Origin: an uncultured Oscillospiraceae bacterium
GTDB lineage: Bacteria; Bacillota; Clostridia; Oscillospirales; Oscillospiraceae
Assembly (NCBI GenBank): GCA_964495355.1
Contig: CAZBVU010000003.1
Location: 8,775-72,774, forward strand
Length of the DNA: 64,000 nt
Direction of reading: 5' to 3'
Shown here: positions 8,363 through 54,052 of the stretch, piece after piece
Numbering within the stretch: position 1 is the first letter of the stretch
Layout of the letters: each line of letters opens with the position of its first letter
The notes under the pieces: model-generated
Database searches by the model: none
Told to the model about the DNA's origin: nothing
The model's input: only the letters and a program-made list of their open reading frames with translations
Translations under genes and position numbers: made by a program

Positions 8363-8454
8363 TGGCGCAGAAGGAGGGATTTGAACCCTCGCGCGCTTTT
8401 TAGACGCCTACTCCCTTAGCAGGGGAGCCCCTTCGGCCTCTTGGGTACTTCTGC
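8363..8454 (-). tRNA. tRNA-Ser (anticodon GCU), class II with long variable arm, CCA encoded
   Basis: The reverse complement gives GCAGAAG-TA-CCC...GGG-G-CTCCC-CTGCTAA-GGGAG-(long variable arm)-GAGGG-TTCAAAT-CCCTC-CTTCTGC-G-CCA. Acceptor, anticodon and T arms all pair. 92 nt. Confidence 0.9.
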
Positions 8455-20414: not shown

Positions 20415-21770
20415 TTGAGTAAGACTGCTACTGTCTTAAATAAAATTGAGCATAACAAGGTGCTGCTGTACTCCGTCACGGCAGTGCTTTGCGTGTGCTT
20501 TGGAATTTTTGTGATACTGACGGCGGACAAGGTTAACGTATACTATCCTCTGCCCACGGCCATTATTTTCGGGGCGCTGCTGTTTTTGTCCATTGCGCTG
20601 GTTATCGCGCAAAACAGGTTTGACACACCCGCGCTCCTTATCGCGGCGGCGTGTCTTGCGTGTGTGGTGTTCTGCCGCGTGTGCCTTTTGTACTATGAAT
20701 CGCGCGACTATACGGCGTTTCTCGCCGACTGGGTGAAGAAGTTCTCTGCCATGTCGATAAAAGAGGCGCTTACAGAGCCTATCGCGAACTACAATATGCC
20801 CTACCTCTATTTTCTGCTCATCTTCTCCCGTCTTGAGCTGTCGCCCATTATCACGATTAAGGCGCTGTCCTGCTTTTTTGACGTTATCCTCGCCTACTAT
20901 GTGATGAAAACCGTCTCCCTCGTCATAGAGGACAGGCGGCTTCAGTTGGCAAGCTATATTGTCGCGCTCGGCATACCCAGCGTGCTTATGAACTCGGCAC
21001 AGTGGGCGCAGTGTGACTCCATCTATGTCGCGTTTTGCGTGATATCTCTGTACGCGGCGATAAAGGGTGATGGGCGGCTGTGCGCAATCAGTTGGACGCT
21101 GTCGTTCTGCTTCAAGCTTCAGGCGATATTCGCACTGCCTGCGCTGTGCGTGGCGCTGTTCATGGGGCGCGTCAAGCCCAAGCACCTTTTGTGGATTCCT
21201 GTCGTGTTCTTCGCAACGCTTATCCCCGCAATGGTCGCGGGGCGCAGTCTTGGCAACTGCCTGAGCATATACGCAAACCAGACCCAGCAGTACCCCTCGC
21301 TTTACTCCAACGCGCCGACGATATGGCAGTTTTTCACCGGTGTTGACTTTGAGGGCTACAGCAATGTTACGGTGTTCCTCGCAGGTACGGCGGTGATACT
21401 GTTCATGTTCTTCACCCTGACCGGCGTTAAAAGCTTCAAGCCGGAGGATCTTATTCGGCTGTTCTTCATCTCCTCGCTGCTTGTGCCGTTTGTCCTGCCG
21501 AGAATGCATGAGCGCTACTTCTACATGGCGGATGTTATGAGCTTTATATACTTCATGACCAACCGCAAGAAGTGGTATATACCGGTGACGGTTATCATCT
21601 CCTCCGTTGTGGGGTATATCTGGTACTTCACCAGTGAGCCGAACCCGGGCATACTGATATTTGACCAGCGTTACCTCGCGCTGGCGCTGCTCGCCATCCT
21701 CGCGACAGAGCTGTATGAGCTTTTCCAGTCGTTCTGGCATAACTCCCCGGATCACATCGTCATCGAGTGA
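20415..21770 (+). CDS. polytopic membrane protein, GT-C-fold glycosyltransferase-like (DUF2029/PMT_2-like)
   Basis: 451 aa with more than 10 predicted TM helices. TTG start 8 nt after GAAGGTGA. Family assignment is tentative. Confidence 0.4.
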   Translation: MSKTATVLNKIEHNKVLLYSVTAVLCVCFGIFVILTADKVNVYYPLPTAIIFGALLFLSIALVIAQNRFDTPALLIAAACLACVVFCRVCLLYYESRDYTAFLADWVKKFSAMSIKEALTEPIANYNMPYLYFLLIFSRLELSPIITIKALSCFFDVILAYYVMKTVSLVIEDRRLQLASYIVALGIPSVLMNSAQWAQCDSIYVAFCVISLYAAIKGDGRLCAISWTLSFCFKLQAIFALPALCVALFMGRVKPKHLLWIPVVFFATLIPAMVAGRSLGNCLSIYANQTQQYPSLYSNAPTIWQFFTGVDFEGYSNVTVFLAGTAVILFMFFTLTGVKSFKPEDLIRLFFISSLLVPFVLPRMHERYFYMADVMSFIYFMTNRKKWYIPVTVIISSVVGYIWYFTSEPNPGILIFDQRYLALALLAILATELYELFQSFWHNSPDHIVIE

Positions 21771-21788
21771 TATAGGTAATATAGAAAA

Positions 21789-21821
21789 CCCCCAGTGCAA
21801 AGGTTAACCTTGCACCGGGGG
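21789..21821. repeat. palindromic hairpin, copy 1 (also the terminator of the GT-C-like gene)
   Basis: CCCCCAGTGCAAAGGTTAACCTTGCACCGGGGG followed by TTTTATTTTT. The same core recurs at 30978-31015. Confidence 0.85.
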
Positions 21822-35644: not shown

Positions 35645-36427
35645 TCAGTCGATATGTATAAGCTTTGCGCTAAGCTCTGATGCCTTTACGTTGGGGTTAT
35701 GGTATCTCTCACGCTTTACGCTGAGACCGCCGAGGTCTATGGCCTTCTGCGGGCAGTATTGCAGACAGCTCAGGCACTGTATGCAGTTGCCGCCGATGAC
35801 GGCCTTGCCGTTTTCAAGGCGGATATTCCCCTTCGGGCAGAGTGTGACGCACTGGCCGCAGCCGATGCAGCTTGCGTTCGCGCGCATTTTCGCACCCTTT
35901 TTGGCAGAAAGCGTCGGCCACATATTAGACTCCACCACGTTCAGCGGGTTGTTCGGCGGACGTCTATCGCGGCGGCGTGCGGAGAGAATCTCACCCGCGA
36001 CAGCCTTTGCAAGCTTCTCTGCGCGGCTTTGCGCCTTGTCAGCGGGCAGCATGGGCATCATCAGCCCGTGCGGGAACAGCCATATGCACGAGCACTGGTG
36101 CGTGATCTTCGCCCAGTAGTCAAGGTGGATGATCTCATCCAGCTTATAAAGACCTGTGCCGAGATACGCCGCGCAGGAGCACACGCCGAAGGTGTAGGCG
36201 TTGGGGCTGATCTGAAGCTGGGAAACGTATTTTTCAACATCACCCGGCAGACCGCCGCCGTAGCACGGGAACACAAAGCCAACGCGCCTTGCATCGCGCA
36301 CGTCCTTTACAGCCGGTTCAGAGCGCATCATGACAATATCCGTATCGCCAAGCTCACCGGCAATGGTTTTTGCTATGTCCAGGCAGTTGCCGCTGCCTGA
36401 AAAACAGAATATAACGTTTTTGCTCAT
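35645..36427 (-). CDS. flavodoxin-like / 2x[4Fe-4S] ferredoxin fusion (EFR1 family)
   Basis: N-terminal IFCFSGSGNC flavodoxin-like start. C-terminal CIGCGQCVTLCP...CIQCLSCLQYCP. Confidence 0.7.
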   Translation of the reverse strand: MSKNVIFCFSGSGNCLDIAKTIAGELGDTDIVMMRSEPAVKDVRDARRVGFVFPCYGGGLPGDVEKYVSQLQISPNAYTFGVCSCAAYLGTGLYKLDEIIHLDYWAKITHQCSCIWLFPHGLMMPMLPADKAQSRAEKLAKAVAGEILSARRRDRRPPNNPLNVVESNMWPTLSAKKGAKMRANASCIGCGQCVTLCPKGNIRLENGKAVIGGNCIQCLSCLQYCPQKAIDLGGLSVKRERYHNPNVKASELSAKLIHID

Positions 36428-36554: not shown

Positions 36555-36583
36555 TTGTACTTAGAATAATGTTGTGGTATAAT
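36555..36583 (+). promoter_or_regulatory. sigma-A-type promoter with extended -10
   Basis: TTGTAC (36555-36560), 17-nt spacer, TGgTATAAT (36575-36583). Confidence 0.55.
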
Positions 36584-36584
36584 A

Positions 36585-36800
36585 GGTGCAAATTGAATAG
36601 CCGCTGCGGTGCGAAGCGCTTACGCGCAGAGCCTAACAAGGAATCCGGTGTGAATCCGGAGCAGTCCCGCTGCTGTATATGGTGACGATGGCATATTAAA
36701 CCACTGAGATATTATTCTTGGGAAGGTTTGCCGGAGGATGAGCCATGAGTCAGAAGACTTGCCGCAATGGCTGAAAGTCAACCGTCCCGAGGAGGATGAG
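36585..36800 (+). promoter_or_regulatory. cobalamin (B12) riboswitch aptamer
   Basis: Conserved core GGAATCCGGTGTGAATCCGGAGCAGTCCCGCTGCTGTA (36640-36677). CCACTG...TGGGAAGG (36701-36726). B12-box-like AGTCAGAAGACTTGCC (36748-36763). Confidence 0.85.
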
Positions 36801-36813
36801 GCTGGCCTGAAAA

Positions 36814-36890
36814 AAGCACAGAGAAATCTGTGCTTGGGTTTGTGTTGCGTCATAGTCTCCATCTCTCACGGGAATGGAGATTTTTCATTT
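36814..36890 (+). terminator. riboswitch expression platform with two candidate attenuator hairpins
   Basis: AAGCACAG-AGAAAT-CTGTGCTT followed by GGGTTTGTGTT (36814-36846). TCTCCAT-(11 nt)-ATGGAGA followed by TTTTTCATTT (36856-36890), immediately before RBS GGAGGA and the ATG at 36902. Confidence 0.55.
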
Positions 36891-36901
36891 GGAGGAACAC
36901 C

Positions 36902-39900
36902 ATGAAAAAACGCATTACCTCTCTTGCACTGGCGCTGATAATGCTGTGCGGCATGATGCCCATGGGCGCATTTGCCGACGATGCTGTGCCGGTGGAAACC
37001 GTCGTTATCGAAACACCGCCCCTCTCTGTCGAGCCGGAGCTCACCCCCGCACCCGCTCCCACGCCTGCATCCGAGTCGGAATCCACCCCCGCGCCCGCTA
37101 CAAGTGCAGAACCTGCACCGGACGCAGAATCTACCGTTGAACCTGTGCCAAGTGCAGAGCCGACAGTTGAGCCTACACCTAGCGCCGAACCCACGCCTAG
37201 TGCAGAAGAAGATGACGCAGATGATGAAATCGCGCTGCTTGGCGGTATTTCCACCTACGCACTGAGCGCATTTGATGAGTCCCTGCTCAACGGCATCCCC
37301 GCCGCGGCAAGCAACTCCGGCTGGAAAAGCGACGGCAGCATGATAGTGTCTGGCAATAAGGGGCAATTTTACAGCTCTGCCACGCTGACGCTGACATTCA
37401 CAACGGATGCGCATATATCTTTTCAGTACAAAGTCTCCTCCGGAAGAAGTGATTATTTTTCCGTCAAGCACAACTCAACGGCTATAGTCAACAATGTATC
37501 CGGTGTTACCGACTGGGTCGGCGTTGCCGTTGATGTGAAGGCAGATGATACCCTCACGTTTGTCTACAGAAAGGGCGGCAACTACAGCACCGGCGTTGAT
37601 GACCGCGCATATCTCACCGGCTTTTCTGCGGGTGAGCCCACTGTAGTCACATTCTACGCCAACAACGGGACTGACGACAGCACCACGCAGAACTTCTACG
37701 GCACAGCCGCGTTGAATGCAAACACATTCACCAAGGATCACGCCGTGTTTGATGGCTGGGCACTCACCGCTGATGGTGAGAAGAAGTATGACGACAAAGA
37801 GACCATAGATAAGCCCACCGAAGCACTTAGCCTGTACGCACTGTGGGCAGATGCAAAGGTCGTCAGCTTTTATAACGGGACAGGCGGGCTTATCGCGTCC
37901 GTAAACATCCGCACCGGCAGTGCCATCCCCGTTGACGCTATTCCCTCGCCTGCAAGCAACGGATATATATTCTCCGGCTGGCGCGTTGACGGCGCGGAAT
38001 TCAACACTGCCGCGCCGATAACAGCAGATATCACCCTCACCGCCGCGTGGACGCCCATCGAATACACTGTGCGCTTCTCGGCCAACAACGGCGCGGGCAG
38101 TATGGCCGATATGGCCGGTCTGAAGTACGGCGAAAGCTATTATCTGCCCAAGTGCAGCTTTGCCAGAGAGGGTTATACTTTTGCCGGCTGGGGCAGCTCA
38201 TCTTACACCAGCACCGCTTCATACGCTGATGAAGCGGCCGTTTCAAACCTCAGTTCCACAAACGGCGCAGTCGTTACGCTGTACGCTGTGTGGTACGGCA
38301 AGCAGGTGCCGGTCACGGTCGATCTGAACTATGACATTGAAAACCGCGTAAGCACACGCACCTGCGTTGTAGGTCAAAACTACAACTACATCTACAACGA
38401 GGCAACCGGCAGCGCAAAGTATTCATCGCTTTCCGACCCGAAGCGTGACGGATACAGATTCCTCGGCTGGTACACCGCCGCAGAGGGCGGGGATAAAATC
38501 ACCACCTCGGATAAATTCACCTCTACTGACGCTGTGACCATGTATGCCCACTGGGTAAAGACCGTCACCATAACATTTGATGCAAACGGCGGCAGCTGCT
38601 ACACCAAAACAAAGGTCATAGATGAGGGCAGTACCTGCTCCGGCTTGCCCTCGGCAAGTCTCAGCGGCAAGACCTTTATCGGCTGGTTCACCGAGATAGA
38701 CGGCGGCCAGCAGGTAACTACCGACACGACCTTTACCACCGACACTATCCTTTATGCGCACTATAAGAACAAGCAGTACATATTAGTGTTCAACGCGAAC
38801 GGCGCTGACGGTGAGATGGAGAGCATCACCGCAGATTCCGGCGTTGAATATACCCTCCCGCCCTGCTCTTTCACGCGTGACGGGTATAATTTCAAGCACT
38901 GGTCAACCTCCTCTTACGATTCAAGCTACTCCACGCGCTATTCCGACGGCGGCACGATAGAATACACCGCAAGCTATGATAACGCGAGATATAACCTATA
39001 CGCCATATGGGAGCAGACGGTTTTCGGCAAGGCGTTTGACGCGATAAAAGCCGCCCTGCCTGATAATAACACCGTTTACACCACCGGTGCACTGAAGCTC
39101 CCCTCCGGCGGTGATGGTTGGAGCGTGGAGTACAGCAGCGATAACAGCAGCTATATAAGCTCCACCGCCGAGGTTCTCACTCTCCCCACCAGCGGCACAA
39201 AAGCCGTCACCATAACCGCGACAGTGACTGACACCGCAAACGGCACAAGCCAGACGCGCGATTACACCCTCACGCTGTACTCTGCCGAGGCAAAACAGGC
39301 CGAGGACACGCTGAAAGAGGCGCTGGGCAAGCTGACAGGGAATTTCACGCCGGTATATGGCACAGATAAAAACGCCTGCCGCGCGCTGGAAGCCCTTCTT
39401 GAAAGCAAGGGCTATGAGGGTATACGCGTGTCCGTGAAAACTCCCGCCGCCGATGATTGCGCGTCTATCGCCGCCGATGGTACTATAAGCTATCATTTTG
39501 ATGACAAAATGACCGGCAGTGACTCCTATCTGCGGCCGGTATACTCTTTCACGCTGTCCGGCGTGACACTGGATAAGGAGCTTCAAACCCGCCTGACATG
39601 GGATCTGGGCAAGGCGCAGGCGCGCATTGATGCACTCGCCGCGTCAATCACCGTCCCCAAGGAGCTTTCAGCCGATGATACGCTGACGCTGCCGAAATAT
39701 CAGCTAAAATCCGGTATTGACCCTGACACTGCCGATTACAGCGATTACACGCAGTTTGACTCATGGGCAACCATCACCTGGGCAGCCGCAGACGCAAGCG
39801 GTGAGGACAGCGAAATACTGAAAATCGGCGCATCCGGCGGCAGCTCCGGCTATTACGCGCCGCACACCGTCACCATCGCGCAGCCGAAAGACGATACCAA

Positions 39901-42271
39901 CGTCACCCTCACGGCCAAGGCCACATGGAATAAGGACAACAGCGTATATGCAAACATGGTCTACACCGTCAAGGTAAAGGGCAGTGACACGGATATTAAA
40001 GAGCAGATGCGCAAGCAGCTTGAGGCAAAGCTTGATGCCGCGCTGAAATCCCCCGGGCTTACGGATATCGTAACCGGCGGCGCACTGGACACAGGCAACG
40101 TTGTAAATGACATACGCTTCCCCTCAACCCGCGACTTTGACGTTAATGGCCAGAAGCAGCCCATTACCATAACCAGCAGCAATGAAAGCGTCATCCCCTC
40201 CCCCGATGTGAATAACGCCGTGCGTGCAAATGTCTACCGCCCCGCCCCCGGTGAGGAGGCTGTGGATGTCACACTGACCATCACCATAACCGACACGGAG
40301 ACCGGCGCTGTCGCGTCGCGTGATGTCACCGTAACCGTGCAGCCGCTGACAGATGCTGAACTGGACGCGGAAATCGCGCTGATGGAGCAGGTAAAAGCGC
40401 ATTATTTTGACGGCATTAAGGGCAAAAACACCAATCCCGATGAGATAACCACCGACCTCACGCCGTTTTCCGAGGTGTATCTGGACGAAGGCGGGAATCT
40501 TGTGTGGGTGTATAAGTATGCCCAACAGGTCGGTCACGGCATTGTGCCTGTCGCGCTGGACGGATGGTACGCCTCCGAACAGTGGCGTCTGTTCAAATCC
40601 TCCAACGCGCAGGTGATAAGCCACGAAAGTCTGGCCGTCACGCGCGATAAGGAGCACAAATCCGTTACCGTGGAGAGCTGTCTCTCCAGCGAGGCTTATG
40701 GCAAGTATGCCGCGCGTTATCCCGGCAATGCAAAGCTGCAAAAGCTTTATAATCAGCCGGTTTCCGCAAAGCTGACTGTCCTCGGCACTGACCCAACAAG
40801 TGATGATGCCGACGAAAAGAAACTGAGCGTGCTATTCACCCTCTCCGACAACGGCGCTCCGTGGATAAGCTGTGCATACAGTGACCTTGGAGAGGGCGTG
40901 ACAGTGTATGATGTGTTCTACCGCGCGCTGTCTGAAAAGGGCTATGCAGCGCTGGGCGGCGCATTTGTAACCGGCATAGTAAAGCCTGACGGCACAGTGC
41001 TCAGCCAGAAGGATCGCGGCGAATATTCCGGCTGGATGTATGCCGTTAACGGCAGCATCCCCGCCGTTGTAATGAGCCAGTACTTCCTCTCTGACGGTGA
41101 CAGTATCCACTTCTTCTACACGGATGATTACACCGCGCTATACGGCAAGCAATCCGAATACACCGTGGATGAGGTGATAAAGCTTATCGACGCCATAGGC
41201 GAGGTCACCATTGCCAGTGGTGACGCGATATCCGCCGCAAGACGCGCGTATGAAACGCTGACGCAGGCGGAGAAGGCACAGGTCAGCAACTACAACATCC
41301 TCAAAGAGGCTGAAAAAGCCTATGCCGCGCTGATAAAGAAAAACGGCGAAATTCTGGATATATACACCACAACCGGCGACTATATCCAGCGTGATGAGGA
41401 GAACACCCTCTGCAAATTCGGCAGTGAGTGGTTCATCCTCGGCCTTGCCCGCAGTGGGCGCGACGTGCCTGAGGAATATATAGAGGTGCTGGAGGCGTAT
41501 GTGTCGGTGCGTGCGGACGATAATGGCCGCCTGAGCGCCACAAAGCCGACAGAAAATGCGCGTGTGATACTCACGCTAACGGCGCTGAGTCTCGACCCGG
41601 CTGACTTTGGCGGGGCTGATCTGCTCGCCCCGCTGGGCGATATGGCGTATATCGCGATGCAGCCCCTCTCCGGCGCGATATACACGCTTCTGGCGCTAAA
41701 CAGCGGCGATTATGACGTTCCCGCCGCGCCTGACGGCAAAAAGCAGACCACGCGCGAGGCGCTTATTGAGTATCTTCTCGACAAGCAGCTTGATGACGGC
41801 GGCTGGGCGTTCTCCGGTGACACCGCTGAGGTTGACGCGACTGCAATGGTGCTGCAAGCACTCAGCGCATATTATGACCCCGACAGCAAGGACGCGCTGA
41901 CAAAGCGCGTGAACGCGGCGGCAGAGGCGGCAATCGCGCTGCTGTCTGATATGCAGAGCAGCACCGGCGGCTATGAAAGCTACGGCACACTCAACAGTGA
42001 GTCGTGCGCACAGGTCATAACGGCAATAACCGCATACAGCATCGACCCGCACACTGACAAGCGCTTTATCAAAAACGGTATAAGCGTTGTGGACGCGCTT
42101 TGCTCATTCTATGTGGAGGGCGGCGGATTCAGCCACACACTCACTGCTGAGCTCGATACACTCGCCACCGCGCAGGGCTATTACGCACTGACCGCGTACT
42201 ACCGCCTGATAAACGGTGAAGCCGCGCTATTTGATATGCGCGACACCGAGGAATATACCCTCGCCGCGTAA
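36902..42271 (+). CDS. secreted 1789-aa multidomain protein; putative extracellular corrinoid-binding protein
   Basis: Start at MKKRITSLALALIMLCGMMPMGAFA|DD (Sec signal peptide); the 24 codons upstream in the ORF track lie inside the attenuator. Domain order: P/T/E/S-rich linker, beta-sandwich-like region, six Listeria-Bacteroides-type repeats, Ig-like repeats, DUF4430-like domain, prenyltransferase-like alpha/alpha toroid. No LPXTG, SLH or choline-binding anchor seen. Confidence 0.85.
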   Translation: MKKRITSLALALIMLCGMMPMGAFADDAVPVETVVIETPPLSVEPELTPAPAPTPASESESTPAPATSAEPAPDAESTVEPVPSAEPTVEPTPSAEPTPSAEEDDADDEIALLGGISTYALSAFDESLLNGIPAAASNSGWKSDGSMIVSGNKGQFYSSATLTLTFTTDAHISFQYKVSSGRSDYFSVKHNSTAIVNNVSGVTDWVGVAVDVKADDTLTFVYRKGGNYSTGVDDRAYLTGFSAGEPTVVTFYANNGTDDSTTQNFYGTAALNANTFTKDHAVFDGWALTADGEKKYDDKETIDKPTEALSLYALWADAKVVSFYNGTGGLIASVNIRTGSAIPVDAIPSPASNGYIFSGWRVDGAEFNTAAPITADITLTAAWTPIEYTVRFSANNGAGSMADMAGLKYGESYYLPKCSFAREGYTFAGWGSSSYTSTASYADEAAVSNLSSTNGAVVTLYAVWYGKQVPVTVDLNYDIENRVSTRTCVVGQNYNYIYNEATGSAKYSSLSDPKRDGYRFLGWYTAAEGGDKITTSDKFTSTDAVTMYAHWVKTVTITFDANGGSCYTKTKVIDEGSTCSGLPSASLSGKTFIGWFTEIDGGQQVTTDTTFTTDTILYAHYKNKQYILVFNANGADGEMESITADSGVEYTLPPCSFTRDGYNFKHWSTSSYDSSYSTRYSDGGTIEYTASYDNARYNLYAIWEQTVFGKAFDAIKAALPDNNTVYTTGALKLPSGGDGWSVEYSSDNSSYISSTAEVLTLPTSGTKAVTITATVTDTANGTSQTRDYTLTLYSAEAKQAEDTLKEALGKLTGNFTPVYGTDKNACRALEALLESKGYEGIRVSVKTPAADDCASIAADGTISYHFDDKMTGSDSYLRPVYSFTLSGVTLDKELQTRLTWDLGKAQARIDALAASITVPKELSADDTLTLPKYQLKSGIDPDTADYSDYTQFDSWATITWAAADASGEDSEILKIGASGGSSGYYAPHTVTIAQPKDDTNVTLTAKATWNKDNSVYANMVYTVKVKGSDTDIKEQMRKQLEAKLDAALKSPGLTDIVTGGALDTGNVVNDIRFPSTRDFDVNGQKQPITITSSNESVIPSPDVNNAVRANVYRPAPGEEAVDVTLTITITDTETGAVASRDVTVTVQPLTDAELDAEIALMEQVKAHYFDGIKGKNTNPDEITTDLTPFSEVYLDEGGNLVWVYKYAQQVGHGIVPVALDGWYASEQWRLFKSSNAQVISHESLAVTRDKEHKSVTVESCLSSEAYGKYAARYPGNAKLQKLYNQPVSAKLTVLGTDPTSDDADEKKLSVLFTLSDNGAPWISCAYSDLGEGVTVYDVFYRALSEKGYAALGGAFVTGIVKPDGTVLSQKDRGEYSGWMYAVNGSIPAVVMSQYFLSDGDSIHFFYTDDYTALYGKQSEYTVDEVIKLIDAIGEVTIASGDAISAARRAYETLTQAEKAQVSNYNILKEAEKAYAALIKKNGEILDIYTTTGDYIQRDEENTLCKFGSEWFILGLARSGRDVPEEYIEVLEAYVSVRADDNGRLSATKPTENARVILTLTALSLDPADFGGADLLAPLGDMAYIAMQPLSGAIYTLLALNSGDYDVPAAPDGKKQTTREALIEYLLDKQLDDGGWAFSGDTAEVDATAMVLQALSAYYDPDSKDALTKRVNAAAEAAIALLSDMQSSTGGYESYGTLNSESCAQVITAITAYSIDPHTDKRFIKNGISVVDALCSFYVEGGGFSHTLTAELDTLATAQGYYALTAYYRLINGEAALFDMRDTEEYTLAA
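37640..39013 (+). other. six tandem Listeria-Bacteroides (Flg_new-type) repeats within the giant protein
   Basis: Each ~70-aa unit ends with an aromatic-G-W...(L/M)YA(x)W signature: FDGWAL...LYALWA, FSGWRV...LTAAWT, FAGWGS...LYAVWY, FLGWYT...MYAHWV, FIGWFT...LYAHY, FKHWST...LYAIWE. Confidence 0.75.
40817..41136 (+). other. DUF4430-like (transcobalamin beta-domain-like) module of the giant protein
   Basis: GVTVYDVFYRALSEKGYAALGGAFVTGIVKPDGTVLSQKDRGEYSGWMYAVNGSIPAVVMSQYFLSDGDSIHFFYTDDY fits the pattern as I recall it (SGWMYxVNG...YxLxDGDxIxxxYT). Confidence 0.7.
41350..42220 (+). other. prenyltransferase/squalene-cyclase-like alpha/alpha-toroid module of the giant protein
   Basis: SEWFILGLARSG, QLDDGGWAFSGD, ATAMVLQALSAY, STGGYESYG, CAQVITAITAY and VEGGGFSH recur at roughly helical-hairpin spacing. 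Confidence 0.6.
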
Positions 42272-42281
42272 AAAAGTATAG

Positions 42282-42316
42282 AAAAACGAGGGAATGCGTT
42301 GGCATCCCTCGTTTTT
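42282..42316. terminator. bidirectional terminator after the giant gene
   Basis: AAAAACGAGGGAATGC-GTTG-GCATCCCTCGTTTTT, with one bulged base. Confidence 0.8.
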
Positions 42317-42344
42317 ATTGCGTTAAACAGGTACTCTCCCTCTC

Positions 42345-43235
42345 TTATTCCATCTCTGCGGCGATGATGCGCATTGTGCTCTCGGCGATATTCAGCACGG
42401 TGTCCAGCTCCATATCACCATAGACATAGGGCAGGACGCTGTCTATAAACACCTGCTCAATCTTGTTGTAATTGTGCGTGTGCAGTGTGGCGCTGTCGAT
42501 CAAACTATGCACGTTCTCGGTCATCTGGGTGGAATTATAAGATTTAAGAACGGCTTCAAGTGCATGGATATTGCCGGGGTAGCATATACGCCGTTGGTCG
42601 AAGTCCTTTATCTGCCATTCCTCTGTGAGTATAAGGCGAAGAAAGCCCCATGCGTTTTCCTTGTCCGTGCACGTTTTGGGTATGAGATGCATGCTGTGAT
42701 CACCGCAGAAAAGACTTGTGAAGTTATCTCCACCGTCGCTGCCGTCATCAAGCGGAAGAATGGTTTTAGGTGCATCATGGGCATCAACTTCCAATGGCGT
42801 TACCGCAATCTCAGCACCGTCGGGGCGATATATGCGAACGGCATACGTCTCGCTGTCCGCCGATTCATCTGAAGTTCCGACAAGAAAATAGAATTTACCC
42901 GCACCGTAGCTCACATTTATTGCGCGGTCTTTCCCGCCTAGTGTAGTGATTATATCTGCGTCAGATAGTGAATGGCTCTCCGTGCCCTTTGTGTAACCCA
43001 TGACGGTGAGAGCGGGTACATCGTTTTTCGTGCCGCAGACAAATATGTGCTCACTGTCCGCTGCAACACCGGTTATGCTTCCGTCAATGCCGAGTGGGTA
43101 GACGCTTTTCGCGTCTGCGCGGTAATAGTATTCCACGTCTTTATTTGCTTGATTGACGGTGTTTGGCTCGGCACTGCAGGCGCATAACAGCATTGCAACA
43201 ACCAAAAACAGCGATATAAAGGTACGTTTTTTCAT
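42345..43235 (-). CDS. hypothetical lipoprotein with a solute-binding-protein-like C-terminal part
   Basis: Signal peptide plus lipobox-like MLLCAC|S. The C-terminal ~110 aa (ENAWGFLRLILTEEWQIKDF...) resemble the tail of ABC substrate-binding proteins. Confidence 0.4.
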   Translation of the reverse strand: MKKRTFISLFLVVAMLLCACSAEPNTVNQANKDVEYYYRADAKSVYPLGIDGSITGVAADSEHIFVCGTKNDVPALTVMGYTKGTESHSLSDADIITTLGGKDRAINVSYGAGKFYFLVGTSDESADSETYAVRIYRPDGAEIAVTPLEVDAHDAPKTILPLDDGSDGGDNFTSLFCGDHSMHLIPKTCTDKENAWGFLRLILTEEWQIKDFDQRRICYPGNIHALEAVLKSYNSTQMTENVHSLIDSATLHTHNYNKIEQVFIDSVLPYVYGDMELDTVLNIAESTMRIIAAEME

Positions 43236-43402: not shown

Positions 43403-44362
43403 TCACCCTACAACATCTTTGAACACCCGCAGGGCGTTTTGGGTGCATATACGGTCAATTTCATCATCGGTAAAGCACTTTGACATGGCATCGGCAAGCC
43501 GCGGCAGACCGGCGCAGTCTTTAAATTCCAGCGCACAGTCTATCCCATCGAAATCTGAACCGAGCGCGACTGCCTCTATTCCGGCCTTGTTGCGGATATA
43601 GTCCATGTGTGCCACTATGTCAGCAATTGCAGTGTAATCCTCGCGTCCGTTGAGAAACGCCGAATAGAAATTGACGCCCACAACGCCGCCGCAGTCGGCC
43701 AGCGCGTGAAGCTGCTTATCCGTGAGGTTGCGGCTGTGGTCACACAGTGCGCGGGCACAGGAGTGCGAGGCGGCAAACGGCTTTTTCGTGCGCCGCGCCA
43801 CATCCCAGAAGCCGCCCTCGGATAGATGCGACACGTCAACAATTATCCCCAGCTCATTCATCCGCTGCACCGCCTCAATGCCAAAGGGCTTCAGCCCCCT
43901 TGCGTGGTCAGCGGCGTCTGCGGCGTTGGGATAACCCAGCGAGTTTTCATAGTTCCATGTCAGCGCCGCCATCCTCACGCCGCGTGAATACATCTCATCC
44001 ACCCGCTCGATTTTCCCGTCAAGAAACACCGCGTCCTCCACTGTCAGCAGGGCGGATATCTTGCCCTCGCGCTGATTCTTTTCAACATCGGCATAGCAGC
44101 GCACAGGCGCTATCGCGTTGGCATATTGCGCCATCTGCGCGTCGAATATATCCGCGAGGGCGTGGAACAGTTCGTAGGCATCCAGCTTCACACCGTTTCT
44201 CTTCGCGCAATCGTGCGTGGCAATAAAGGCCGCAAAGCTTTGCATAAGCACCTCACCGGCGGCAAGCTTTGCAAGATTTATGTGTCCGTTCAGCGCGGCA
44301 AGATCCTTTTTCTGAAGATACATTTCAAAAAGGCTGTCGCAATGTAAATCTACAAATCGCAT
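43403..44362 (-). CDS. membrane-dipeptidase family (peptidase M19) dipeptidase
   Basis: MRFVDLHCDSL start, LTWNYENSLG and DVSHLSE motifs. 319 aa. Confidence 0.8.
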   Translation of the reverse strand: MRFVDLHCDSLFEMYLQKKDLAALNGHINLAKLAAGEVLMQSFAAFIATHDCAKRNGVKLDAYELFHALADIFDAQMAQYANAIAPVRCYADVEKNQREGKISALLTVEDAVFLDGKIERVDEMYSRGVRMAALTWNYENSLGYPNAADAADHARGLKPFGIEAVQRMNELGIIVDVSHLSEGGFWDVARRTKKPFAASHSCARALCDHSRNLTDKQLHALADCGGVVGVNFYSAFLNGREDYTAIADIVAHMDYIRNKAGIEAVALGSDFDGIDCALEFKDCAGLPRLADAMSKCFTDDEIDRICTQNALRVFKDVVG

Positions 44363-44387
44363 TATTATCGTCTCTTTTCTTTATTAT

Positions 44388-45779
44388 TTAGGCCAGTTTC
44401 TTTCTCTTTTTCGCGCACATGGTATAGTATACCGCACAGACGACCAGCAGGAATGCCGAAGCCGCCGTCTCCGCGAGGCCGATATGGAACACCACCGGTA
44501 CAGGGCGCGTGGTCATAAGCCACGCCAGCGGCACACGCACTGCAAGCCCCGCGATTATCCCCTGCGTCATCACAAAGGCGGTCTTGCCGATGCCGTTAAA
44601 ATATCCGGTGAAGCAATACGCAAGCGACAGCACAAAGCACTCAATACTCGTGGCTTTCAAAAACTCTGCCGAGACCGCGATAACCGCCGCCTCCTCAATG
44701 AACAAAGAGGACAGCACATCACCGAAGAAGAACGTCAGCAGCGCGATACCCCCGCCAATTACGGCGGCGGTGGCCATGCCGTCCCACATCGCCTGCCGTG
44801 CGCGCGCGTGCTGTTGTGCGCCGGTATTCTGCGCGACAAAGGCCGACACCGACTGCATATAGCTGAGCGGCACAAGGAAGATGAACATGGCAATCTTCTC
44901 CGCAATGCCAACGCCTGCCGCGATGGTCAGGCCAAGGCTGTTGACAAGGCCGATGATGATAAGATATGACAGCTCATTGCACATATCCTGCAACGCGACC
45001 GGAAAACCCAGCTTTATCACGCCCAGCGCCGTCTCTCTCTCTGGCCGCATAGCCTCCCGCGCGAGCTTGAAGGGCAGACCGTGCTTTTTGATAAGCAGCA
45101 GCGACAGCGCCACGCTTATCGCCTGCGCCGCAGTGGTGGCGATCGCCACGCCCGCTGCGCCGAGGTTAAATACCCTCGTCAACAGTATATCCCCCGCAAT
45201 GTTGAACACGCTTGCAATCGTGACGAAAATCAGCGGCGCTCGGGAGTTGCCCATGCCGCGGAAAATGGCACTGGTGAGATTATACGCCGCAATGAAGATG
45301 CAGCCCGCGCCGCATATGCGGATGTAATCCACCGTGTGTTCCAGCGCCTCCACCGGTGCATTCATCAGCAGTGCGATTGGCCGCGCCAGCACTATCACCA
45401 GCACCGTCAGCACCGCGCCAAGGCCGCCGAAGATATAAATACTCGTCCCAATAACGCGCGAGGCGCCCGCGCTGTTCCCCTCGCCGATGCGCATACCCAA
45501 CAGCACCGTTGTGCCGAGGGCAAGGCCGGTTATAAGGCCGTTTATTATCAGCATGGTCTGGCTGCCTGTCGCAACAGCAGACACCTCCGCCGCGCCGCAA
45601 AACCGGCCCACAGCCCACAGGTCAACCGCGCCGTAGAACGCCTGTAAAAAAAGCGCCAGCAGCACCGGCAGTGAAAACTTCAGCATTGCGGGGATGATAG
45701 GCCCGCTCAGAAACGCCCCCTCTATTTTAACCTCGTTATTGTTTGCTGTGTTATTGTTTATGTTCGATATTTCCGCCAT
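44388..45779 (-). CDS. MATE family efflux transporter
   Basis: 463 aa with 12 TM helices. PVLLALFLQAFYGAVDLWAVGRF N-terminal motif. Confidence 0.85.
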   Translation of the reverse strand: MAEISNINNNTANNNEVKIEGAFLSGPIIPAMLKFSLPVLLALFLQAFYGAVDLWAVGRFCGAAEVSAVATGSQTMLIINGLITGLALGTTVLLGMRIGEGNSAGASRVIGTSIYIFGGLGAVLTVLVIVLARPIALLMNAPVEALEHTVDYIRICGAGCIFIAAYNLTSAIFRGMGNSRAPLIFVTIASVFNIAGDILLTRVFNLGAAGVAIATTAAQAISVALSLLLIKKHGLPFKLAREAMRPERETALGVIKLGFPVALQDMCNELSYLIIIGLVNSLGLTIAAGVGIAEKIAMFIFLVPLSYMQSVSAFVAQNTGAQQHARARQAMWDGMATAAVIGGGIALLTFFFGDVLSSLFIEEAAVIAVSAEFLKATSIECFVLSLAYCFTGYFNGIGKTAFVMTQGIIAGLAVRVPLAWLMTTRPVPVVFHIGLAETAASAFLLVVCAVYYTMCAKKRKKLA

Positions 45780-50850: not shown

Positions 50851-51330
50851 TCAATTCAGCAGGAACACGCCCATGTTGAGGTAGCCGGCGAAGGCTGTCC
50901 ATACGAGGTAAGGCAGCATCAGGCGGCCGGCGCGCTTGTCGATATGATAGAAAAGCACTGTGCATATCGCAATCAACAGCCACATACCTACCAGCCACAC
51001 AAAGGCGGTCAGGTGCAGCTCCAGCGCGAAAAAGATAATAGACCAGAAAAAGTTCATCCCCAACTGCACCGCATAAAAGCTCAGCGCACGATTGCGCCGC
51101 ACCTGCGTGGCCGATGACGTGTAGACGAGATACGCCGCAATGCCCATCAGCACATAAAGCACCGTCCACGCCACGGGGAACAGCCAGTCCGGTGGCGACA
51201 GCGGCGGCTTTCGCATTAGCTTAAACAGGCGCATCCCGTCCATCGTCAGCATTGCCGATGCCCCGCCCACGGCCAGCGGTATGATAAGCGATATTATAAG
51301 CGGCCAAGTGCCTCTATTCTTTTTTCCCAT
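50851..51330 (-). CDS. tspO: TspO/MBR family tryptophan-rich sensory protein
   Basis: 159 aa with 5 TM helices. KPPLSPPDWLFPVAWTVLYVLMG...WSIIFF...LPYLVWTAFAGYLN. Confidence 0.85.
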   Translation of the reverse strand: MGKKNRGTWPLIISLIIPLAVGGASAMLTMDGMRLFKLMRKPPLSPPDWLFPVAWTVLYVLMGIAAYLVYTSSATQVRRNRALSFYAVQLGMNFFWSIIFFALELHLTAFVWLVGMWLLIAICTVLFYHIDKRAGRLMLPYLVWTAFAGYLNMGVFLLN

Positions 51331-52178: not shown

Positions 52179-53303
52179 ATGAAAACACGAAATCTCATTA
52201 TCGTTTTGCTTGCGCTGTTTATCGTCGGCGGGATATTTATATACGCCCGCACACGTCCGGATGATGCGCGCGGCGTGGTGTCCGTCTGGTGCGTTGATGG
52301 CGGCACAGCGTCCGGTGTGCTCGATGAGCTTGCAAAGGAATATAATCACAGTTTGTCCCGCGCACAGCTTCCGGTTGAGATAAAGCGCTTTGCCGATGAA
52401 GCAGAGTTGGCCGTTACGCTCGATTCCGCCACGCCGGACATTATCCTGTGCACGCACTATCGCGCGTTTGAAATGCACGCACGCGGCAAGCTTGCGGACA
52501 TTTCGTCAGCCCTGAACGATTCTGCCCTTGATTACCCCATGGCGCTGTCCAGCCGCAGTGCAAGTATTGGGTCAAGCTTCTTCCCCCTCGGTATGCAGGC
52601 GCAGGTGCTTCTCGTGAACACCGCGCTGTGCGGTGAAGCGGAGCTGATCACCATGGACGCGCTGTCCGGCAGTGCGCAGAATTATTACAGCGAAAACGGC
52701 GCGGCGTTTTATGCTGTGGATTCTTATTCCGCACTCTTTTTCACTGAGCTTTTGCGCGAGGGTGATGAGTTTACCGCCCAGCTTTCCGACAAGCCCACAG
52801 GGGCATACAAGGCACTGTATAACCTGCTTGCAGATGATGTATACAGCGGCGCGATGCTGCCTACTTGTGATGATGCCGTCGCGCGTGTCCTATCGGGTGA
52901 GCTGGCCTGCGCTATAGTTTCCTCGTCCGCACTGCCAAACAAAATTGGACGCGGATTTGAAATACGCCCTGTACCGCCGCTCTATCAGGAGAACGACAGC
53001 GGATATCTGGCCGAGGCGTGGGGACTTGCCGTAACTGCCGGCGGCAGTCGGAGCGCGGACGATATAGCGTCGTTCATCTCGTGGCTGCTCTCGGGCAATC
53101 GCGGCGTTAAGCTGGCGTTAGAGTGCGGTTTGATACCCGCACAGGAGAGCACGCTCACAACGCATGATGTACTGTGGGGTGCGCTTATCGAGGTGTATAA
53201 GGGCAAAATCGCCGCCCTGCCCACAGCTGACAGTGCGTATGCACAGGGCTGTGAGGCGTTCGAGAGCGAATTTTGCGAAAGATTGCGTTTTTTATATCAA
53301 TAG
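52179..53303 (+). CDS. membrane-anchored extracellular solute-binding-protein-like protein (orphan)
   Basis: N-terminal TM helix, then a periplasmic-binding-protein-like sequence (VSVWCVDGG...ELAKEYN...PDIILCTHY). No permease or ATPase gene is adjacent. Confidence 0.4.
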   Translation: MKTRNLIIVLLALFIVGGIFIYARTRPDDARGVVSVWCVDGGTASGVLDELAKEYNHSLSRAQLPVEIKRFADEAELAVTLDSATPDIILCTHYRAFEMHARGKLADISSALNDSALDYPMALSSRSASIGSSFFPLGMQAQVLLVNTALCGEAELITMDALSGSAQNYYSENGAAFYAVDSYSALFFTELLREGDEFTAQLSDKPTGAYKALYNLLADDVYSGAMLPTCDDAVARVLSGELACAIVSSSALPNKIGRGFEIRPVPPLYQENDSGYLAEAWGLAVTAGGSRSADDIASFISWLLSGNRGVKLALECGLIPAQESTLTTHDVLWGALIEVYKGKIAALPTADSAYAQGCEAFESEFCERLRFLYQ

Positions 53304-53380
53304 TATAGCAGATTTTATTGCATTAACGTGCAAGCGGTGGTATAATCACAGTATATTCTTTTATAAAACGAGGTAATAAA

Positions 53381-54052
53381 ATGGAAGGCTTCAAAGTTCT
53401 TGAAATAAAAAAGAGCGTTTTTGAAAACAACGACCGTGAGGCTGAGCTTCTGCGCAAGGAACTCAAGACCAACAAAACATTCCTGCTCAACCTGATGAGC
53501 TCCCCCGGTTCGGGCAAGACCACCACGCTGAAGGCTACTATCGCCGCGCTGAAGGATGAGTTCCGCATCGGCGTTATGGAGGCTGACATTGATTCTGACG
53601 TTGACGCGGCCACCATCGAAAAGACCGGCGCAAAGGTCATTCAGCTTCACACCGGCGGTATGTGCCATCTGGACGCGGGCATGACCAAGCAGGGGCTTGA
53701 GGGTCTCGGCGTGAACGATGTTGACTTTGCAATACTCGAAAACGTTGGCAACCTTGTGTGCCCGGCTGAGTTTGACACCGGCAGCAGCAAAAACGCAATG
53801 ATCCTCTCTGTTCCGGAGGGTGATGACAAGCCGCTCAAGTACCCGCTTATGTTCTCCAAGTGCAATGTGCTGCTGATAAACAAGATTGACGTTATGCCGT
53901 ACTTTGACTTTGATCTGGAAGCCTGCAAGAAGTACGTTTACCGCCTCAACCCCGACATCAAGATAATCCCCATCTCCGCCCGTACCGGCGAGGGCATTGA
54001 TGAGTGGGCAGATTGGCTGCGCAATGAGATCCGCGCATGGAACGCCGACTAA
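53381..54052 (+). CDS. hypB: nickel-insertion GTPase HypB
   Basis: P-loop LMSSPGSGKTTTL, CHLDA metal-binding motif, ENVGNLVCP, NKID. 223 aa. Confidence 0.9.
   Translation: MEGFKVLEIKKSVFENNDREAELLRKELKTNKTFLLNLMSSPGSGKTTTLKATIAALKDEFRIGVMEADIDSDVDAATIEKTGAKVIQLHTGGMCHLDAGMTKQGLEGLGVNDVDFAILENVGNLVCPAEFDTGSSKNAMILSVPEGDDKPLKYPLMFSKCNVLLINKIDVMPYFDFDLEACKKYVYRLNPDIKIIPISARTGEGIDEWADWLRNEIRAWNAD

Follow-up and report, generated by a model that had tools for sequence, protein, structure and literature searches.

Burroughs, Balaji, Iyer and Aravind (Biol Direct 2007 2:4; PMC1796856) predicted that bacterial secreted proteins fusing an SLBB domain to an alpha/alpha toroid scavenge B12, and proposed that the animal transcobalamin-like proteins derive from such bacterial proteins. 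In these fusions the toroid lies on either side of the SLBB domain, and the genes occur in low-GC Gram-positive hosts next to paralogous SLBB genes and in operons with CbiO/CbiQ-type transporter genes; a text search of the paper found no mention of riboswitch control. The transcobalamin-type SLBB domain carries a beta-hairpin insert after the helix, in which a conserved hydrophobic residue stacks against the base of the lower ligand (PMC1796856), and in the vertebrate TCN proteins DUF4430 corresponds to the C-terminal domain (PMC4350170). In Lactobacillus sakei, lsa1836-1840 encodes an ECF transporter together with separate secreted transcobalamin alpha-like and beta-like proteins, for which a role in the uptake of heme was put forward (bioRxiv 10.1101/864751). 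According to a review of 2026, extracellular cobamide capture by Gram-positive gut bacteria "remains entirely uncharacterized" (PMC13616437).

We analysed a 64 kb stretch of DNA (the window) holding a locus that is likely to be a single-gene, corrinoid-repressed unit making an extracellular corrinoid-capture protein of 1789 aa (the giant protein). The features of the locus are as follows.

36555-36583, + strand: putative promoter (weak -35 TTGTAC, 17-nt spacer, extended -10 TGgTATAAT)
36590-36780, + strand: cobalamin riboswitch aptamer RF00174, full length with peripheral extension (cmscan)
36783-36808, + strand: box CCGTCCCGAGGAGGATGAGGCTGG, predicted 5' strand of an antiterminator (conservation and RNA folding)
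36814-36835, + strand: hairpin A, 9-bp stem with GAAA tetraloop (RNA folding)
36853-36892, + strand: hairpin B and U-tract, predicted intrinsic terminator of the expression platform (RNA folding)
36892-36904, + strand: RBS GGAGGA (36892-36897) and ATG start (36902)
36902-36976, + strand: Sec-type signal peptide, aa 1-25, predicted cleavage between AFA and DD (by eye from the translation)
36977-37636, + strand: Pro/Glu/Ala/Thr-rich linker, aa 26-110, and beta-rich domain, aa ~111-245 (composition)
37640-39001, + strand: six Flg_new / Listeria-Bacteroides repeats, aa ~247-700 (PF09479; approximate boundaries)
39002-40822, + strand: middle region with two aBig_2 (atrophied Ig) matches, aa ~701-1307 (PF20578)
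40823-41131, + strand: SLBB/DUF4430 domain, transcobalamin-beta-like, aa ~1308-1410 (PF14478 and AF2 model)
41132-41341, + strand: helical linker with IDAIG...ARxAY motif, aa ~1411-1480 (helices in AF2 model)
41342-42268, + strand: alpha/alpha toroid, aa ~1481-1789 (AF2 model, Foldseek)
about 42283-42317, bidirectional: intrinsic terminator closing the single-gene unit (A-run, 11-12 bp G+C-rich stem, T5)

Like the proteins described in 2007, the giant protein has a signal peptide, an SLBB-toroid fusion and a large multidomain surface architecture; unlike them, it is encoded outside any transporter operon and has no anchor. It shares with animal transcobalamin, intrinsic factor and haptocorrin (2bb5, 2bb6, 5np4, 4kki, 2pmv) the combination of a toroid with a beta-grasp SLBB domain in an extracellular protein, and differs from these carriers in its order (beta then alpha, with a helical linker of ~70 residues between), in the placing of the module inside a 1789-aa repeat protein and in showing no detectable match in sequence to their PDB chains. 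Both folds are likewise extracellular and accompanied by an ECF importer in L. sakei lsa1836-1840, as at five distantly related loci (L011, L020, L022, L042 and L044); L. sakei splits the two domains over two proteins, whereas the giant protein has them in one chain and is encoded without ECF genes as neighbours. BtuG, BtuH and BtuJ of Bacteroides, B12-riboswitch-controlled extracellular binders that feed a transporter, offer a functional analogy (PMC8941943, PMC13616437). These proteins are lipoproteins of the outer membrane, act together with the TonB-dependent BtuB and have no homology to the SLBB-toroid module. BtuG is a beta-propeller, and neither this propeller nor the BtuH B12-binding domain nor BtuJ/DUF4465 was found in Pfam and PDB-sequence scans of the giant protein. 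The initial annotation, which had suggested that the protein would be analogous to the Bacteroides capture proteins but "built from unrelated parts", was right with respect to BtuG/H/J and wrong with respect to animal transcobalamin, intrinsic factor and haptocorrin, whose parts are homologous.

The region 36590-36780 is a genuine cobalamin riboswitch aptamer. It matched RF00174 (Rfam clan CL00101) over model positions 1-189 of 189 with 111.7 bits (E 3.8e-27; gathering score 31.5 bits) and was the sole riboswitch that cmscan detected in the 64 kb window. The aptamer strings from which the riboswitch had initially been recognised were all in place, at 36640-36677, 36701-36726 and 36748-36763, the last being the B12-box region AGTCAGAAGACTTGCC. 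The promoter was also located where it had been claimed, with the -35 hexamer at 36555-36560 and a perfect extended -10 ending at 36583. The -35 hexamer agrees with the consensus at just 3/6 positions, and for this reason a consensus scan did not list the promoter; the extended -10 TGTGGTATAAT is kept in orthologous leaders. The aptamer core is nearly identical in the orthologous loci L001-L004 and L007.

Two hairpins had been noted ahead of the RBS, and RNA folding recovered both, predicting that the leader can form either a terminator hairpin, followed by a U-tract, or an antiterminator helix. Hairpin B (36853-36882, -13.4 kcal/mol) is followed by a T-rich tail (TTTTTCATTT / UUUUUCAUUU). The CCGTCCCGAGGAGGATGAGGCTGG box is kept in the five closest orthologues (L001-L004 and L007) and pairs with 36853-36873 both in the full-leader MFE structure and in the nascent-RNA fold; it is predicted to act as the 5' strand of the antiterminator. 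A hairpin and U-tract with differing stem sequences lie 3' of the aptamer in L001-L005, L007 and L027, and the corresponding terminator-like hairpin of L010 is weaker than at the other loci. A GAAA-loop hairpin is also present at the position of hairpin A in orthologues, again with different stem sequences, and L003 has two copies of it.

The giant ORF (36902-42271, + strand, TAA at 42269-42271) is, as first described, the only gene ahead of a strong terminator, and the neighbouring gene (42345-43235) is convergent to it. The absence of B12 transport and biosynthesis genes from the window was confirmed by a Pfam scan of 59 ORFs across it, in which no btuFCD, ECF-CbrT, BtuB or cob/cbi domain was found; the one near miss was a generic CobW/HypB/UreG GTPase (53381-54052). 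Neither the window as a whole nor the syntenic loci contain CbiQ/EcfT, CbiO/EcfA ATPase or S components.

Upstream of its C-terminal module the giant protein has a long repeat region. The signal-peptide start (MKKR...) is kept in orthologues, and aa 26-245 gave no Pfam match. The Flg_new repeats matched PF09479 in 6 stretches (E 1.2e-49) and TIGR02543, and the InlB B-repeat 2y5p matched the same region weakly; this region is likely to be a stalk or adhesive part. Two stretches of aBig_2 (PF20578, E 2.5e-10) follow within aa ~701-1307, a region that yielded no other domain assignment. No wall or membrane anchor was recognisable in the protein sequence, whereas relatives carry SLH, dockerin, LPXTG-like (sortase-type) or TM anchors. 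The C-terminal 480 residues comprise the SLBB/DUF4430 beta-grasp domain, the helical linker, whose IDAIG...ARxAY motif is kept family-wide, and the alpha/alpha toroid.

The fold of the SLBB domain, as modelled, is nearest to the beta domains of the B12 carriers. DUF4430 (PF14478) matched aa 1332-1407 with 37.4 bits (E 3.7e-9; curated cut-off 23.8 bits). The AF2 model (pLDDT 88.3) found only transcobalamin, haptocorrin and intrinsic-factor beta domains or the DUF4430 structure 3u7z at PDB ranks 1-19 (E 2.8e-5 to 1.4e-3), with rank 20 at E 0.019, and superposed on transcobalamin 5np4 with a TM of 0.73. Extra strands come after the SLBB helix in the model, and the SGWMY-VNG motif is conserved in the family. 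We predict that this domain forms one half of a corrinoid site.

The toroid is predicted to form the other half. Its AF2 model (pLDDT above 90) matched prenyltransferase beta subunits and terpene cyclases in Foldseek (E 6.5e-5 and weaker), ahead of transcobalamin (E 1e-3, TM 0.47); intrinsic factor and alpha/alpha-toroid glycosidases and lyases were also listed, and TM values against transcobalamin and intrinsic factor were 0.40-0.49. At the sequence level the toroid gave a weak PF13243 match, the family profile matched terpene cyclases and neither transcobalamin nor intrinsic factor among PDB sequences, and the giant protein had no Pfam match to Cobalamin_bind and detected no transcobalamin or intrinsic-factor chain in sequence searches of the PDB. 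Membership of the toroid in the eukaryotic cobalamin-binding family was accordingly rejected, because its likeness to transcobalamin is at the level of fold only. One secreted polypeptide thus holds both domains, and in the models the toroid that follows the SLBB domain supplies the second of the two domains that make up an animal B12 carrier, where one corrinoid sits sandwiched between them.

A survey of homologous loci, suggested at the outset, bore out the link to the riboswitch. RF00174 lies upstream on the same strand at 19 of 28 evaluable genome loci and at all of the extra metagenome loci (3/3), giving 22/31. L001, L002, L003 and L007 are syntenic with the window locus and likewise single-gene, and aptamer, promoter and terminator are kept across species whose giant proteins share only 48-58% identity. 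In more distant relatives, toroid and DUF4430 proteins precede an ECF importer (EcfT, EcfAA', S component): at L011, L022, L020 and L042-L044 the riboswitch heads an operon of toroid, DUF4430 and ECF components, with EcfAA' ATPases and an S component wherever annotated and a CbiQ/EcfT match at L011, L022 and L044. The family comprises at least 2610 clusters at 50% identity (E <= 1e-30), many of them giant proteins, and is found in Oscillospiraceae, Ruminococcus and other Clostridia. The nearest relatives of the giant protein are from Oscillospiraceae and other Clostridia MAGs, so the Gram-positive host assumed in the initial annotation is likely.

The giant protein is most likely an extracellular B12 catcher because its C-terminal tail resembles transcobalamin. 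The RF00174 aptamer, the predicted expression platform, the SLBB and toroid domains, the riboswitch link across the family and the ECF-linked relatives all count in favour of capture. Counting against it are a toroid sequence nearer to terpene-cyclase/prenyltransferase repeats than to transcobalamin, the missing transporter in the window and syntenic loci, the lack of a recognisable wall or membrane anchor for delivery to the cell, and the heme, not B12, proposed for the split L. sakei homologues. In the literature searched, no measurement of corrinoid binding was found for any member of the bacterial SLBB-toroid family. The initial annotation had suggested capture or competition; the first is supported by the DUF4430 and toroid domains, the 22/31 riboswitch loci and the ECF operons of relatives, and the second has no specific support.

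What follows on the switch, on corrinoid binding and on transfer to a transporter is inferred. While the cell contains sufficient cobamide (probably AdoCbl), the aptamer would be folded and leave the 36853-36882 hairpin with its U-tract free to stop transcription; under cobamide shortage, the 36783-36808 box would pair with the 5' arm of the terminator and allow read-through. The giant protein would then be exported by Sec, with the long Flg_new and aBig_2 repeat region serving as a stalk or adhesive part, and bound ligand would be handed over to an importer in the membrane whose genes lie in another part of the genome; the most plausible candidate is an ECF system like those associated with the relatives.

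The same missing transporter, in the window and in syntenic orthologous loci, and the missing anchor that relatives possess would also fit a protein that sequesters or stores corrinoid outside the cell, as denial to competitors or as a local reservoir, without dedicated hand-off to a transporter. We consider this improbable, since repression by B12 follows the logic of an acquisition gene and a competitor-denial factor would be equally useful in a replete cell; relatives, moreover, share operons with ECF importers. A different tetrapyrrole, for instance heme, as the ligand of the SLBB-toroid module is suggested by the L. sakei study, in which the homologous operon was connected with the uptake of heme and heme was docked to the modelled Lsa1839/Lsa1840 pair that accompanies the ECF transporter (bioRxiv 10.1101/864751). 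A text search of the study turned up no reference to riboswitches, and the cobalamin riboswitch present here and at 22/31 related loci is a signal that makes sense for corrinoids only, which renders heme a very unlikely ligand.

The toroid could instead be an enzyme, terpene-cyclase/prenyltransferase-like or glycan-active, on a large surface protein whose B12 regulation reflects a metabolic link other than capture. Its best sequence and fold matches are indeed drimenyl-diphosphate synthase, squalene-hopene cyclase and the farnesyltransferase beta subunit, with alpha/alpha-toroid glycosidases and lyases among the fold matches. However, the DxDD motif of class-II cyclases is present only in degenerate form, as EVDA in the giant protein and as DPDM in the family profile, the isoprenoid diphosphates used as substrates do not occur outside the cell, and the toroid is always paired with a B12-carrier-type SLBB domain, fused or in an adjacent gene, and with ECF genes in relatives; we give an enzymatic role very little credence. 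Least probable of all, with nothing specific in its favour, is a riboswitch that has decayed and lost its function, leaving expression of the gene independent of the B12 supply, given the full-length, high-scoring RF00174 match and the conservation of aptamer, promoter and terminator between species with strongly diverged giant proteins.

Within the preferred reading of corrinoid capture, the absence here of an anchor that relatives possess means that the giant protein could be a released, diffusible "corrinophore", an analogue of hemophores on the fold of host B12 carriers that gathers cobamides for a transporter encoded elsewhere. We regard this version as rather doubtful. Such a protein might possibly obtain its cobamides from other microbes or from the intrinsic factor or haptocorrin of the host, and could then represent, in a living organism, the bacterial stock behind the animal transcobalamin-like proteins.

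The novelty implied by the initial annotation was overstated, because the family had already been predicted to scavenge B12 (PMC1796856); the kind of system is known by prediction, and the window contributes little of a new kind. It is valuable as a clean example in which a strong riboswitch stands before a single gene. Together with its very large family, the locus offers a concrete and easily testable candidate for Gram-positive cobamide capture: a riboswitch-marked, secreted module that is transcobalamin-like in fold and in DUF4430 and is wired to ECF importers in relatives. Binding, if true, would show how Firmicutes compete with Bacteroides over the gut corrinoid pool and would give an experimental footing to the 2007 proposal of a bacterial origin of the animal B12 carriers.

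The SLBB fold also occurs by itself in gut Clostridia. RUMGNA_00854 of Ruminococcus gnavus (3u7z) has the same fold (E 1.6e-4, TM 0.61) and, unlike the giant protein, is a stand-alone DUF4430 with no toroid, a single 97-residue chain deposited as a "putative metal binding protein".

The leader of the giant gene contained a full-length match to the cobalamin riboswitch model RF00174 (36590-36780 (+), model positions 1-189 of 189, 111.7 bits, E 3.8e-27; gathering score 31.5 bits), the only riboswitch found by cmscan of the whole window with Rfam 15. Every sequence element named in the initial annotation was found at its assigned position by direct reading of the window, and we regard the riboswitch as real with near certainty. 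The extended -10 element of the promoter, TGgTATAAT, ended at 36583, seven bases 5' of the aptamer, and TGTGGTATAAT from this region was kept in the leaders of orthologues. The -35 hexamer, TTGTAC, was weak, matching the consensus at three of six bases, and the promoter was therefore omitted by a consensus scanner. The features 3' of the aptamer were as follows.

36814-36835 (+): hairpin A, the first of two hairpins 3' of the aptamer
36853-36882 (+): hairpin B, with UUUUUCAUUU directly 3'
36892-97 (+): ribosome-binding site GGAGGA, from sequence reading
36902 (ATG) to 42269-71 (TAA) (+): giant open reading frame, 1789 aa
~42283-42317: bidirectional terminator, 3' of the giant gene

The gene after the terminator is convergent to the giant gene. 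The claim that the window carries no B12 transporter or biosynthesis genes held up, as no BtuFCD, ECF, BtuB or cob/cbi domain was detected among 59 ORFs scanned with Pfam across the whole 64 kb. A CobW/HypB/UreG-type GTPase (53381-54052 (+)) was set aside as a B12 candidate, being a generic G3E GTPase that adjoins a solute-binding protein; the two genes, solute-binding protein first (52179-54052 (+)), are probably a metal-chaperone pair.

We examined how the leader might regulate the gene. Hairpin B had a local minimum free energy of -13.4 kcal/mol with the 3' arm included and was followed by U5. In the predicted fold of the nascent leader to 36875, a conserved box (36783-36808) paired with the 5' arm of hairpin B (36853-36873), and this antiterminator helix was also present in the minimum free energy fold of the whole leader. 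A hairpin and U-tract with different stem sequences lay 3' of the aptamer at several numbered homologous loci from other genomes (L001-L005, L007 and L027), with a weaker version at L010. Given these folds and the recurrence of the hairpin and U-tract in orthologues, we read the element as a transcriptional OFF switch, in which the cobamide-bound aptamer would favour the terminator. The full-length RF00174 match with its peripheral extension suggests a class-I, AdoCbl-responsive switch. A hard-constraint fold 'enforcing' the terminator returned an implausible energy (-27.9 kcal/mol) and was disregarded. When an L5-L13 kissing loop was sought by eye, the conserved box proved to have GUCCCG, the same sequence as the aptamer loop (36664-36669) rather than a complement to it; the terminator loop does contain a complement, CGGGA, but in the same search by eye this was not kept in orthologues. 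A GAAA-tetraloop hairpin with covarying stems lay between aptamer and terminator in all close orthologues (36814-36835 in the window; L001, L002, L003, L004 and L007), twice in the L003 leader, and may serve in pausing or in a tetraloop-receptor contact.

The layout of a riboswitch followed by one giant gene was also present at four syntenic loci (L001, L002, L003 and L007), which have flanking genes in common with the window. The upstream ferredoxin-like gene (35645-36427) was 75-80% identical to its counterparts there, and the downstream M19 dipeptidase and MatE genes (43403-45779) were 72-75% and 65-71% identical. The giant protein itself was 48-58% identical to the syntenic orthologues and thus evolves faster than its neighbours, a gap that would fit rapid evolution of a surface-exposed protein. 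At two of these loci the giant gene was split into two overlapping ORFs (L002:3917-9464, 782 + 1125 aa; L007:5382-9276, 1132 + 287 aa), a split that stems either from a frameshift introduced when the MAG was assembled or from genuine pseudogenisation, in some lineages, of the putative capture gene. The ORF convergent to the giant gene (42345-43235 (-), 296 aa) had no match in Pfam and begins like a lipoprotein (LLCAC near its N-terminus); it was absent from L001-L003 and L007, where the M19 dipeptidase comes directly after the giant gene, and looks like a lineage-specific insertion.

The giant protein carries a Sec-type signal peptide, six Flg_new / Listeria-Bacteroides repeats (Pfam, E 1.2e-49), two aBig_2 domains, a DUF4430 domain (PF14478, aa 1332-1407, 37.4 bits against a cut-off of 23.8 bits) and a weak squalene-hopene-cyclase-type repeat match (aa 1628-1706). 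Pfam and sequence inspection revealed no LPXTG signal, transmembrane segment, SLH domain or dockerin. A lipoprotein signal peptide (IMLC) was rejected on the atypical Leu at -1 and the presence of a good signal peptidase I site (AFA|DD), and an internal LPTSG at aa 761 was rejected as a sorting signal, having no hydrophobic tail after it. Searching PDB sequences by phmmer with the whole protein returned an InlB B-repeat as the sole match, uninformative for the C-terminus, and the same search with the beta-grasp (SLBB) region alone gave no significant match.

We then turned to structure prediction for the C-terminal module. In the model of the last 490 residues, built with a 58-member family alignment (mean pLDDT 84.9, pTM 0.75), a small domain rich in beta strands was joined by three linker helices to an alpha/alpha toroid of about 300 residues, for which pLDDT exceeded 90. 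Foldseek matched this model to alpha/alpha toroids generally. The top of the ranking was taken by terpene cyclases and the beta subunits of prenyltransferases (E 6.5e-5 and weaker), with transcobalamin below the prenyltransferases (E 1e-3, TM 0.47); intrinsic factor was also among the matches. For this model the result is consistent with a carrier without discriminating. Because the search was swamped by the generic toroid, the SLBB domain was modelled separately (aa 1300-1428, pLDDT 88.3). Its 19 best PDB matches were solely transcobalamin (human, bovine and rat), haptocorrin, intrinsic factor and the Ruminococcus gnavus DUF4430 protein 3u7z; they included the beta domain of transcobalamin in isolation with cyanocobalamin (5np4, TM 0.73), and the match after these 19 fell to E 0.019. 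Within the SLBB beta-grasp superfamily, DUF4430 corresponds to the transcobalamin-type clade (PMC1796856); in vertebrate transcobalamins it forms the C-terminal domain (PMC4350170). The two models together thus give the C-terminus the two-domain plan of animal B12 carriers, in which the same domains stand in the opposite order; Burroughs et al. (PMC1796856) described bacterial proteins whose toroid lies on one side or the other of SLBB. When a family profile was searched against PDB sequences, its toroid repeats matched terpene cyclases and squalene-hopene cyclase and nothing else, transcobalamin and intrinsic factor not being reached, so a common origin of the toroid and the alpha domain of transcobalamin is argued from fold only. 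Judged by sequence, the toroid is closer to terpene-cyclase repeats than to transcobalamin.

Close homologues of the module numbered in the hundreds in Clostridia metagenomes, in varied architectures that included SLH, dockerin, Big and C-terminal transmembrane or sortase-type tails. An identical protein was present in Logan assemblies of SRR14160763 and SRR14160765. An exhaustive phmmer search against 1.84 billion cluster representatives returned 9091 matches at E <= 1e-3, 5688 at E <= 1e-10 and 2610 at E <= 1e-30, and many of the best were 1000-3600 aa long, indicating that giant versions are common. A subgroup of relatives in protein alignment A3 (P0062, P0065, P0078, P0085, P0086 and P0053) have a signal peptide, toroid, two predicted transmembrane helices and SLBB, so that the halves of the putative binding site would be membrane-tethered between them.

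A scan of GTDB genomes yielded 39 homologous loci, mostly from Oscillospiraceae, Faecousia, Acutalibacteraceae, Ruminococcus and other Clostridia. Rfam scans covered 30 of these, two of which (L006 and L013) were cut off too near the gene and left out; RF00174 lay on the same strand upstream of the gene or operon at 19 of the 28 evaluable loci. It was also present at all three additional metagenome loci, picked only by contig extent and anchor type (SLH, aBig_2, dockerin). The riboswitch association looked for in orthologues was therefore found at 22 of 31 evaluable loci, and its absence from orthologues, named in the initial annotation as a refuting outcome, was not observed. At a Ruminococcus locus with no riboswitch upstream of the toroid homologue, RF00174 lay 5 kb downstream on the same strand (L024:14551-14757) and presumably controls another unit. 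At another locus, where a 1380-aa homologue lacked a riboswitch, two tandem copies of Clostridiales-1 sRNA (RF01699, 91 and 90 bits; L025:16355-16649 (-)) lay about 7 kb downstream of that homologue.

In more distant relatives the riboswitch stood at the head of an operon in which a toroid protein, often with SLH or dockerin, came first, followed by one or two separate DUF4430 proteins and lastly by CbiQ/EcfT, a fused EcfA-A' ATPase and an ECF S component, the latter sometimes fused to the ATPase. The same arrangement is seen in L. sakei lsa1836-1840, and B12 scavenging was predicted from this toroid/DUF4430/ECF neighbourhood in 2007 by Burroughs et al. (PMC1796856). At locus L043 (2875-14046) a cobalamin riboswitch preceded a long series of short ORFs that encode aBig_2 fragments, a toroid, DUF4430, two ABC ATPases and an ECF S component. 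Frameshifts seem to have broken up a large aBig_2-toroid protein here, one with direct coupling to an ECF importer; a tandem glycine riboswitch lay at 16274-16459 of the same locus.

Homology of the SLBB domain and toroid, together with the gene context of relatives, supports the initial proposal of extracellular corrinoid capture, and we consider this the probable function of the giant protein. By homology and context, the protein would be exported, its long repeat region serving as a stalk or adhesive part, and one corrinoid would be clamped between the SLBB domain and the toroid, then passed to an importer encoded elsewhere. Sequestration of corrinoid without uptake would account for the missing transporter and missing anchor, yet it fits poorly with B12 repression and the ECF linkage of relatives and seems unlikely. 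Binding of heme by the module, as proposed for the L. sakei homologues (bioRxiv 10.1101/864751), is hard to reconcile with control by a cobalamin riboswitch, and we judge it very unlikely.

An enzymatic role for the toroid is where its best fold and sequence matches point. The DxDD-equivalent motif is degenerate, however, reading EVDA in the giant protein and DPDM in the family profile, and catalysis is also argued against by the location outside the cell and by the SLBB domain that constantly accompanies the toroid, making this highly improbable. That the riboswitch is dead is contradicted by its conservation and is likewise highly improbable.

Corrinoid capture by such a protein would belong to a known, predicted kind, and the novelty of the giant gene is modest: the function of the bacterial family was predicted in 2007 from sequence and gene context (PMC1796856). 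What is particular to this gene is its uncoupling from a transporter operon, kept in at least five species, and its lack of an anchor. The suggestion that it is built from unrelated parts holds with respect to Bacteroides BtuG, BtuH and BtuJ, to which the SLBB-toroid module is unrelated, but not more widely, as the module is homologous to the animal B12 carriers. Literature searches turned up no experimental study of a bacterial DUF4430 protein or transcobalamin-like B12 binder, for any bacterial member; extracellular capture of cobamides by Gram-positive bacteria is described as 'entirely uncharacterized' in a review of September 2026 (PMC13616437), and a review of C. difficile riboswitches gives only classical members of the B12 regulon. 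The locus would not surprise a B12 comparative genomicist, but it offers a clean, directly testable way into an open question.

Elsewhere in the window, two ORFs of about 450 aa without a Pfam match overlapped almost fully on opposite strands (20415-21770 (+) and 20436-21800 (-)). The sole tRNA was a tRNA-Ser(GCT) with a long variable arm (8363-8454 (-)). A TspO/MBR family gene (50851-51330 (-), Pfam E 2.9e-44) lay 9 kb downstream of the riboswitch unit with no evident link to it; members of this family are usually described as tetrapyrrole-binding membrane proteins.
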